Shown here in pieces: positions 29,334 to 31,982 of a stretch of DNA of 64,000 nucleotides; the first letter of the stretch is position 1; every line of letters begins with the position of its first letter. Source of the stretch: Escherichia coli (GTDB taxonomy: Bacteria > Pseudomonadota > Gammaproteobacteria > Enterobacterales > Enterobacteriaceae); assembly GCA_029351405.1 (NCBI GenBank), contig GCA_029351405.1_4841.1; one strand, 5' to 3'. The notes beneath the pieces were generated by a model. It was not told where the DNA came from. It did no database searches and saw only the letters and a list, made by a program, of their open reading frames with translations. The translations under genes were made by a program, and so were the position numbers.

Positions 29334-29783
29334 TCAGAAACGGGTATCGCTGACCGTTCTGTATCGCACACCCTGAAACTGTTTAGCGAGTTTAACAAAT
29401 TCCATCGCTGGTAAATCAACTTTGTAGACCTTCATGCGCTGTTTGCCGTCCATGTTCAACGCAGCGACAAATCGGTGTGAGCCGTCAACAACGTAATTGT
29501 CAGAAGACACCCAAACCCGACCCATAGGTTTCTTATTTCTGATGTTCTTCATGATCTTCCAGACCTTCATCTTGTTGATTTCGTTCTGGGTAAGACGAAG
29601 CATTTTGATGGGCACTTGCGCAGCATCTATGGACACGCCGTTGTCTTCAAGATATTTGTGAAAATCTTCTTGTTTGTCGGCATCGATTTGCGGCATAGAA
29701 GAACGAGAAAGCCCGAGGTTCCCAACAGGAATCCTCAGGCCGTTAATGATGTTCAACCAGTCAATAAAAGATGTAAGGAACAT
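29334..29783 (-). CDS. ParB-like nuclease (ParBc/sulfiredoxin-fold) domain protein
   Basis: LRLTQNEI ... VVDGSHRFVAAL resembles the ParB N-terminal DGHHR box. Confidence 0.5.
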   Translation of the reverse strand: MFLTSFIDWLNIINGLRIPVGNLGLSRSSMPQIDADKQEDFHKYLEDNGVSIDAAQVPIKMLRLTQNEINKMKVWKIMKNIRNKKPMGRVWVSSDNYVVDGSHRFVAALNMDGKQRMKVYKVDLPAMEFVKLAKQFQGVRYRTVSDTRF

Positions 29784-29975: not shown

Positions 29976-30263
29976 TTACACCTCGTCTTCTTCAGGTCCA
30001 CCGTCAATCAGGATACGAGCGGTGTCGAAAGTTTCCCCACCCGTGTTCAACAGCTTGGTTAGATCATCAAGAGTACCGACAGGACCAAGATCAGCCTGGC
30101 GGAGAACGAACTCTAGAAGCCCGTAGAGCGCTGATTGGAAACGGGAGTTGTCGATATCGTTCTTGACTTCCATCAGGCGGACAACATTGGCAGACTGGAC
30201 ATAACTCAGCTGAGTCTTACCTTTTGCCATGTCTTTCACGGAACGGCGTTGTTCAGGCGTCAT
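29976..30263 (-). CDS. hypothetical protein (95 aa)
   Basis: ATGA coupling to the upstream gene. Confidence 0.5.
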   Translation of the reverse strand: MTPEQRRSVKDMAKGKTQLSYVQSANVVRLMEVKNDIDNSRFQSALYGLLEFVLRQADLGPVGTLDDLTKLLNTGGETFDTARILIDGGPEEDEV

Positions 30264-30637
30264 AATGTTCCACCCCCGACAGAGATCAAGAACTCTTCTT
30301 GCATGGTCTTGACCGGGTGGTGGTTTCGGATTTCGATCATGAAGCCCCAGCCGCCGTCGGCGACGTTGCCAAAGGTCTTGACGCCAAAGGACTTCGTCCC
30401 GTTGGAGCAGGAATAGATGTCCAGGACGTATGGGCTACCCTGATTGTCGATCCCACGATTCACGTCTTCTGATACGCAGCGCTCAATCATCTTCCCGTTC
30501 TTATACAGAACGAGGTCTTGGCCATACGCCTTGAAAGCATAAACACCGTTGGTAGACACTCCGGTGATGACAGGAGGGGCGGAAACAGCAGCAAAGGAAG
30601 CGCCTAGCAGGGCAACAGCGAGGATTAACTTTTTCAT
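30260..30637 (-). CDS. predicted secreted protein (125 aa)
   Basis: ATG at 30637 in the cassette TTGAAACCAAGAGACTATATCATG. Signal peptide MKKLILAVALLGASFAAVSA|P. Confidence 0.65.
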   Translation of the reverse strand: MKKLILAVALLGASFAAVSAPPVITGVSTNGVYAFKAYGQDLVLYKNGKMIERCVSEDVNRGIDNQGSPYVLDIYSCSNGTKSFGVKTFGNVADGGWGFMIEIRNHHPVKTMQEEFLISVGGGTL

Positions 30638-30661
30638 GATATAGTCTCTTGGTTTCAAATG

Positions 30662-30683
30662 GGCGGGGTATGATTACCCCGCC
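30662..30683 (-). promoter_or_regulatory. GC-rich leader hairpin followed by CATTTGAAA
   Basis: Minus strand reads GGCGGGGTAatcaTACCCCGCC. Its stem is identical to that of the hairpin at 31223-31240 and its loop is complementary. Confidence 0.55.
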
Positions 30684-30689
30684 GTGGGT

Positions 30690-31196
30690 TTATAGAGTAA
30701 CAAGTGATACGGTAAAAACCATCGTCCCGTCTGTTGCCATTTTTCTTGAAACTGGTATGACGCGAGGCTGGCAGAATATCCATTCTTTCTCCATGGACGC
30801 CAAGTCCAGCATATCCATTTCTGATTCATCGCCTTTGTTCACAAATTTTTCTAGAGAACCATAGACATTAAGCCCCTCCGGGAGTCCGTTTCGATGTTTG
30901 TAACAAATGCGGGCAACAGCTTTGGTTCCGTACGATTTAGAAAATTGTTTGGCCACATGCTTCAGTTCACTGAAGCTAAGACAAGAATCCCATGTCTGGA
31001 ACATGTCGCCTCGTTCAAACATCATCTCTAAACGCGCAACGTCCTCTTTAGGCAGCCCGCGATAAAGTGTGGTCGTCTGTGGTTCGCGTAATTCTTGCAC
31101 CAGATCACGGACGGCAGGGGAAACAGTACCGGGGCGCATTATGTGGGACTTATCATGGACGAGGTAAAATAAATCTTGAATTTGTTGATCGGTCAT
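30690..31196 (-). CDS. candidate mono-ADP-ribosyltransferase (R-S-ExE class; T4 Alt/Mod-like size)
   Basis: 168 aa. The ordered motifs TLYRGLP (Arg), CLSFSEL (S-x-S) and MEKEWIF (E-x-E) have spacing typical of the ART fold. ATG at 31196 in the exact cassette. Confidence 0.45.
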   Translation of the reverse strand: MTDQQIQDLFYLVHDKSHIMRPGTVSPAVRDLVQELREPQTTTLYRGLPKEDVARLEMMFERGDMFQTWDSCLSFSELKHVAKQFSKSYGTKAVARICYKHRNGLPEGLNVYGSLEKFVNKGDESEMDMLDLASMEKEWIFCQPRVIPVSRKMATDGTMVFTVSLVTL

Positions 31197-31222
31197 GGTA
31201 TAGTTCCTGCATTTCAAATAGA

Positions 31223-31302: not shown

Positions 31303-31494
31303 TTACCTTTCCCACGATACCTGTCTCGACATCAACTTCTTCAGCAACCCACTCTTTCCCTTCTTGCTGATGATAACGTCACGACGCTGTGCGTAGACTT
31401 CTTTGGTCGCATACACACGACGGAACCCTTTAGCGCGGAGCAAGCCCCAATTGCGATCAATTTCTACTGAGGTTTCTACCATTTTGTTCTTCAT
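31303..31494 (-). CDS. small basic early protein (63 aa); possible -1 frameshift extension to 31256
   Basis: ATG at 31494 downstream of an early promoter. An in-frame G_GGA_AAG heptamer lies at 31354-31360, and the -1 frame stays open to the TAA at 31256-31258. Confidence 0.5.
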   Translation of the reverse strand: MKNKMVETSVEIDRNWGLLRAKGFRRVYATKEVYAQRRDVIISKKGKSGLLKKLMSRQVSWER

Positions 31495-31940: not shown

Positions 31941-31982
31941 GCTACTTCTCCCAAAGAATGGCGGGTTGCCCCGCCCGTTGGA

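Follow-up and report, generated by a model that had tools for sequence, protein, structure and literature searches.

[quoted passage not shown] The target of ModA is R265 of the RNA polymerase alpha-subunit, and ModA and ModB differ in their targets (PMC8120803). ModB acts on S1, EF-Tu and trigger factor and is also able to RNAylate (PMC10468400). A survey of NAD-ADPr systems in viruses lists the Mod family of the RSE clade as one of the most frequent viral ART families (PMC9503650). The gene described here probably encodes an active, minimal member of this family, a phage ART of only 168 aa belonging to the R-S-E (cholera-toxin-like) clade, and it is carried on a dispensable cassette that varies between strains.

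The gene lies in a stretch of 64,000 nucleotides (the window), whose DNA matches Enterobacter phage fGh-Ecl02 at 95 % identity and other Kuttervirus and Agtrevirus phages of the Ackermannviridae at 90-95 %. The window represents a Kuttervirus-like Ackermannviridae phage. The encoded protein is 97 % identical to the product of orf140 of CBA120 (gp110, YP_004957813), which is called 'RNA polymerase ADP-ribosylase' in RefSeq and is hypothetical in many GenBank records. The ADP-ribosylase assignment is thus already public through the RefSeq label of the orthologue. The label evidently came by profile transfer; it is the inherited family name of PHROG 832, not a tested function. A search of the literature for ADP-ribosylation or temporal transcription in CBA120, Ackermannviridae or Kuttervirus found nothing relevant. 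The features of the locus are collected in Table 1.

Table 1 Features of the predicted ART gene and its flanks (window coordinates; residue numbers refer to the 168-aa protein)
Feature	Coordinates	Strand	Basis or remark
Predicted Mod-family R-S-ExE ART coding sequence, stop codon included	30690..31196	-	ORF, PHROG 832, hhalign, AlphaFold model, fold neighbours, CBA120 orf140/gp110 orthologue
Shine-Dalgarno-like AGGAA, 7 nt 5' of the ATG	31204..31208	-	Read from the sequence
TLYRGLP codons, residues 43-49 (R46 codon 31061-31059)	31050..31070	-	Predicted NAD-binding Arg, end of predicted strand beta-1
CLSFSEL codons, residues 72-78 (S74 codon 30977-30975)	30963..30983	-	S-x-S/T motif, predicted strand then helix
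MEKEWIF codons, residues 135-141 (E136 30791-30789, E138 30785-30783)	30774..30794	-	Predicted catalytic E-x-E, start of predicted strand
Upstream GC-rich hairpin, 9-bp stem, 4-nt loop	31221..31242	.	Pattern search; RNA fold -22.1 kcal/mol, z -2.6
Downstream copy of the same hairpin	30662..30683	.	Followed by ATTTGAAA, a ribosome-binding site and the ATG of the next gene

The ORF reads on the minus strand from an ATG at 31196-31194 to a TAA stop at 30692-30690. An alternative TTG start at 31217 would lengthen it by seven residues. The homologues all begin at the position of the ATG (MTDQQ or MKEDD), and the ATG start is therefore the right one. An earlier note, made from this DNA by a reader of the letters alone, had picked out the same 168-aa ORF without giving its strand; the ORF is real and its coordinates are right. 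The note had also pointed to three ART hallmarks in a plausible order and spacing, and these are found as described: R46, S74-F-S76 with S74 28 residues further on, and E136-K-E138 with E136 62 residues after S74.

Taken by itself the bare R/SxS/ExE triad is weak evidence. The loose pattern R..SxS/T..ExE with the same spacings was present in 11 of the 530 ORFs read from the six frames of the window, and 10.6 % of the shuffled versions of the protein also had it. When the context of the motifs was included ([YFW]RG...SxS/T...ExE followed by a hydrophobic residue), the candidate was unique in the window (1 of 530 ORFs) and the pattern arose in 0.06 % of shuffles. As the bare triad was unconvincing, the decisive evidence had to come from profile and fold tests.

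The profile comparisons all led to the Mod family. PHROG 832 matched the candidate with an E-value of 2.8e-15 over profile positions 1270-1425 of 1480, and T4 ModA and ModB match the same stretch of the profile (1241-1438). When an alignment of the candidate family (A1, 10 sequences, 56-95 % identical) was compared by hhalign with an alignment of the Mod family (A6, consisting of T4 ModA, ModB and eight homologues), the probability was 97.4 % and the E-value 1.3e-11 over 136 columns. An HMM built from the ModA/ModB homologues alone had the candidate as its sole match among the 530 six-frame ORFs of the window (E 1e-7), and no second Mod-like ORF was found in the window by this model. Even BLASTP recovered the relationship, with an E-value of 4e-4 to ModA and 0.017 to ModB. 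In these pairwise alignments the R, S and ExE motifs fell on each other, LYRG over LWRG/LYRG, SFS over SAS and EKEW over EQEW. The precomputed Pfam tag PF26816.1 was present on all the ModA/ModB homologues retrieved and on the candidate-family members P0003, P0006, P0013 and P0015.

Other database searches gave no match. A local copy of Pfam-A that lacks the PF26816 model, and NCBIfam, returned nothing for the candidate or its homologues; this is uninformative, since the same databases also miss T4 ModA and ModB. A sequence search against PDB chains found only a chance citrate synthase for the candidate (E 1) and nothing for ModA or ModB, which means that no solved Mod structure is available. 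An exhaustive search of representative sequences at E <= 0.001 gave 11 hits, the new ones among them being only distant relatives of 164-188 aa; the candidate family is small.

The relatives of 164-188 aa form a wider Mod-like clade, 28-43 % identical to the candidate, which includes a protein of Erwinia phage pEa_SNUABM_7 (L007, 2959-3510) and the metagenomic proteins P0013-P0025. This clade and the candidate have in common an N-terminal L-x-Y-L-x-H-D-K motif with an invariant Lys (K16 in the candidate); in T4 ModA and ModB only the Lys of the motif is conserved.

The earlier note had proposed to look for an ART fold by structure prediction, and such a fold is present in the predicted structure. 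An AlphaFold2 model made from a 17-sequence alignment had a pLDDT of 89.1 and a pTM of 0.84, with no segment below 50. In the model R46 ends the strand 44-47, S74 lies on the strand 73-76, which is followed by a helix at 79-88, and E138 starts the strand 138-141. The predicted order of the motif-bearing strands is that expected for an R-S-E ART. All 50 Foldseek matches listed from the PDB were ADP-ribosyltransferase entries, and the nearest solved structures are all R-S-E ARTs. The fold neighbours among these matches included HopU1 (E 4e-7), C3, ExoS/T, Tre1, Vis, Certhrax, SpvB and iota toxin. Against viral models the best match was the orthologue from phage bering, and the first match carrying a Mod name, ModB of Serratia phage CBH8, stood at rank 4 with an E-value of 9e-11. 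Beyond the candidate's own family the closest named viral neighbours were CBH8 ModB, a 'putative ADP-ribosylase' of Pectobacterium phage PM2, Sf22 ModA and TG1 ModA, with E-values of 1e-8 to 1e-10 and TM-scores of 0.68-0.72.

The residues expected to be catalytic are conserved far beyond the close family. In an 18-sequence alignment that takes in the distant 164-188-aa relatives as well as ModA and ModB, R46, G47, A82, F85, E136 and E138 show no variation, even at 19 % identity. The 17-sequence family alignment has S74 throughout, and the residue is still nearly invariant once ModA and ModB are added. By column, R46, S74, E136 and E138 correspond to R72, S96, E163 and E165 of ModA and to R73, S99, E171 and E173 of ModB. 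The R73A,G74A mutant of ModB is inactive (PMC10468400), as is the E165A mutant of ModA (PMC11404850), and R72, E165, F127 and F129 are counted among the key residues of ModA (PMC8120803). The motif serine of ModA has been named as S109 (PMC8120803). In the structure-guided alignment the serine column contains ModA S96 and not S109; the S109 column is occupied by K87 in the candidate, and its neighbours are unconserved.

With these correspondences the enzyme would be expected to work as other R-S-E ARTs do. R46 on strand beta-1 and S74 on the S-x-S strand would hold NAD+, and E138 would be the catalytic Glu that stabilises the oxocarbenium intermediate once nicotinamide has left. The EXE motif is common in arginine-modifying ARTs (PMC8120803), and the presence of E-x-E rather than Q-x-E points to an arginine acceptor; E136 would then direct ADP-ribose onto arginine side chains of host proteins. 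If ModA and ModB are a guide, its targets are likely to lie in the transcription or translation apparatus of the host.

The resemblance to T4 ModA and ModB that the earlier note had suggested is thus borne out by the PHROG match, the profile-profile match, the predicted fold and the column-by-column alignment of the motifs. One of its remarks does not stand. The sequence outside the motifs, which it took to be not recognisably similar, is recognised by profile methods and even by BLASTP to ModA, and in place of a possible separate divergent family the candidate appears as a divergent branch of the Mod family. It may have a different target, as the note had suggested. Judged by homology, it is a short and divergent Mod member, new to a known family and already labelled by homology in public records.

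Within the family the likeness to T4 ModB is seen in the shared PHROG and profile stretch and in the aligned R-G, S-x-S/T and E-x-E-W motifs. Both are small proteins with a single domain, and the gene of each stands in a block of small genes to which no function is assigned. The two differ in length, ModB having 207 aa and the candidate 168 aa, and the candidate is without about 25 N-terminal residues and is about 15 residues shorter in the insert before the ExE strand. They also differ in origin, Straboviridae and Ackermannviridae, respectively, and are only 19 % identical in the multiple alignment. ModA shares the PHROG too, and models of ModA rank high among the structural neighbours. Compared with ModA the candidate is 32 residues shorter (30-40 residues shorter than ModA and ModB overall), is here too without about 25 N-terminal residues and part of the insert, and again has 19 % identity, while ModA and ModB are about 25-27 % identical to each other.

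It is rather unlikely that the candidate is a functional equivalent of T4 ModA, which would ADP-ribosylate R265 of RNA polymerase alpha and shut off host or early promoters. The shared PHROG, the slightly better BLASTP score to ModA than to ModB and the labels of the RefSeq orthologues speak for such a function. However, the label is inherited from the name of a PHROG that covers both ModA and ModB despite their different targets (PMC8120803), and in the multiple alignment the candidate has the same identity to ModA and to ModB. In the columns of ModA F127 and F129 it has L109 and V111, within a G-L-N-V segment that is conserved in the close family of the candidate, and the candidate thus has neither of the two traits specific to ModA, these phenylalanines and a greater closeness to ModA. 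The residue that follows ExE is W (EKEW), which ModB shares (EQEW) and where ModA has V (EQEV); nothing in the sequence speaks to the choice of target.

More distant relatives share the clade. The bacterial R-S-E mono-ART toxins and effectors (Vis, Certhrax, C3, VIP2/iota, HopU1, Tre1 and ExoS/T) are 7-18 % identical to the candidate and all longer, and the candidate has none of the secretion, translocation or immunity partner domains of such toxins. T4 Alt and the VIP2-type packaged phage ARTs also belong to the R-S-E clade. Alt is a capsid-packaged protein of 682 aa in PHROG 802, whereas the candidate is a single-domain protein of 168 aa in PHROG 832 without the N-terminal packaging region. 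A relationship of the Alt type was considered and rejected, as hhalign of the candidate family against Alt gave a probability of 0.2 % and the PHROG is 832 rather than 802.

The gene lies within a long run of minus-strand genes. Upstream of it are genes for a vWFA-domain protein, an acyl carrier protein (ACP) and a small protein, and downstream are those for a signal-peptide protein, a 95-aa protein, a ParB-like 149-aa protein and the spanins. A sigma-70-like sequence, TTTACT-17-TATTAT, is found at 31574-31546 (minus strand) 5' of the preceding small gene; it is a weak candidate, the scan giving 10 sites where 6.5 +/- 2.4 were expected.

On both sides the ART gene is bordered by the same GC-rich hairpin, GGCGGGGTA-4 nt-TACCCCGCC, in two near-identical copies, taken with about 25 nt on either side. 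The loops read TGAT and ATCA, so that one copy is inverted. These two copies were the only ones in the 64 kb, where a pattern search would be expected to give 0.01, and on the coding strand each of them leads into ATTTGAAA, a ribosome-binding site and an ATG. Intrinsic termination was considered as a role for the hairpins; however, a terminator scan called neither of them, and the T runs in their tails are short.

The hairpins mark the ends of a unit that can be missing. Salmonella phage Maynard is without exactly one unit of 559 bp, which corresponds to the gene and one hairpin, and no gene is annotated there. At the Maynard junction a single hybrid copy of the hairpin is found, with a 50-bp overlap at the hairpin. 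The hybrid copy together with the missing 559 bp suggests gain or loss of the gene by recombination between intergenic hairpins, and such recombination between the repeats could either delete or insert the ART cassette. Shuffling of promoter/stem-loop cassettes has been proposed for T4-type phages, and the hairpin arrangement at the ART gene is reminiscent of it.

The distribution of the gene is similarly uneven. In tblastn searches the protein was found in 78 phage records, of which 11 belong to Erwinia jumbo phages at about 27-30 % identity, while the flanking DNA matched 222 records. A second allele lineage (barely, PhiSH19 and PMBT18) occupies the same locus and is 56-58 % identical (57-58 % for barely and PhiSH19), and the nearby ParB-like gene is 97 % identical. 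The neighbours are mosaic as well, with identities between phages of 65 % for the ACP and 32-39 % for the 95-aa protein. From the absence in Maynard, the record counts and the two allele lineages, the ART gene is by genome comparison an optional, exchangeable cassette in a mosaic region. The earlier note had placed it among early accessory genes; the precise absence from Maynard agrees with accessory, and expression may be early.

[quoted passage not shown] T4 Alt acts in this way on MazF, and AcrIF11 on Csy1. ARTs directed against defence proteins thus have precedents (PMC8120803; PMC12421852). The precise presence or absence of the 559-bp unit, the difference between the records with the protein and those with the flanking DNA, and the diverged alleles beside a well-conserved gene would all fit an enzyme of this kind. 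However, the neighbouring genes are mosaic too and the variability is therefore a property of the region and not of the ART gene, and no defence-related partner was identified. We regard an anti-defence function as unlikely. A related, more speculative proposal, to which we give a similarly low probability, is that of a minimal Mod-type ART on a hairpin-bounded variable cassette whose target is neither RNA polymerase nor a known ModB substrate, and possibly a defence or toxin component specific to the host strain. If it were true, the two allele lineages, which are ~57 % identical beside a 97 % identical gene, would reflect an arms race.

An activity like the second mode of ModB, in which NAD-capped RNA serves as the substrate and RNA chains are attached to host proteins (RNAylation), would agree with the homology to ModB, the aligned R-G and ExE-W motifs and the documented RNAylation by ModB itself (PMC10468400). 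It is nevertheless distinctly improbable, since among the three T4 ARTs only ModB is efficient in this reaction and the sequence determinants are not known (PMC10468400), and since the candidate at 19 % identity is no closer to ModB than to ModA. Least probable is that the protein is no protein ART at all, be it a dead ART-fold protein, a pure NADase, a nucleic-acid-modifying ART like those R-S-E enzymes that modify DNA or tRNA, e.g. Scabin and SCO5461 (PMC8120803), or an unrelated protein with motifs of the kind that arise by chance, since homology and fold were established independently of the motifs and a dead enzyme would hardly have kept the catalytic R, S and both E unchanged throughout the family.

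The preferred reading, a minimal Mod-family ART on an optional cassette, means that a stripped-down Mod-type enzyme, as predicted here, also circulates in Ackermannviridae. The hosts of these phages include Salmonella, E. coli O157 and Shigella, and the phages are studied as biocontrol or therapeutic agents. With its 168 aa the protein would offer a compact model for target choice, and possibly for RNAylation, in the Mod family, and the presence/absence polymorphism provides natural comparisons that are close to isogenic. The interest of the enzyme would rise if its target differed from the known T4 substrates.

Some further observations were made on the neighbouring genes. The small gene just upstream (phrog_804, 31303-31494, minus strand) has a 1-nt deletion near 31357 ('aaggg-aaag') compared to Maynard, CBA120 and fGh-Ecl02. 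The reading frame changes after residue 47, so that the product has 63 aa and not 79 aa. Either this is a genuine frameshift or the purine run was misread in sequencing. The 149-aa protein (29334-29783, minus strand) has a DGSHRF motif and a weak ParB-like match to phrog_1033 (E 6e-4), and its best family is phrog_2859, of unknown function. In public records it is labelled 'cytidyltransferase', 'putative structural protein' or hypothetical. It is 97 % conserved where the genes beside it have only 32-66 % identity between the phages.

The signal-peptide protein downstream of the ART gene (MKKLILAVALLGASFAAVSA..., phrog_5474, 30260-30658, minus strand) is present here and in Maynard, and is not annotated at the same locus in CBA120 (L002) or in barely (L006). 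By comparison of the phages, the stretch downstream of the ART gene is a mosaic hot spot. A further GC-rich hairpin, GGCGGG-GCAA-CCCGCC on the minus strand, is situated at 31959-31980, just downstream of the vWFA-domain gene. It is terminator-like on both strands, and a terminator is annotated in Maynard at the matching place.
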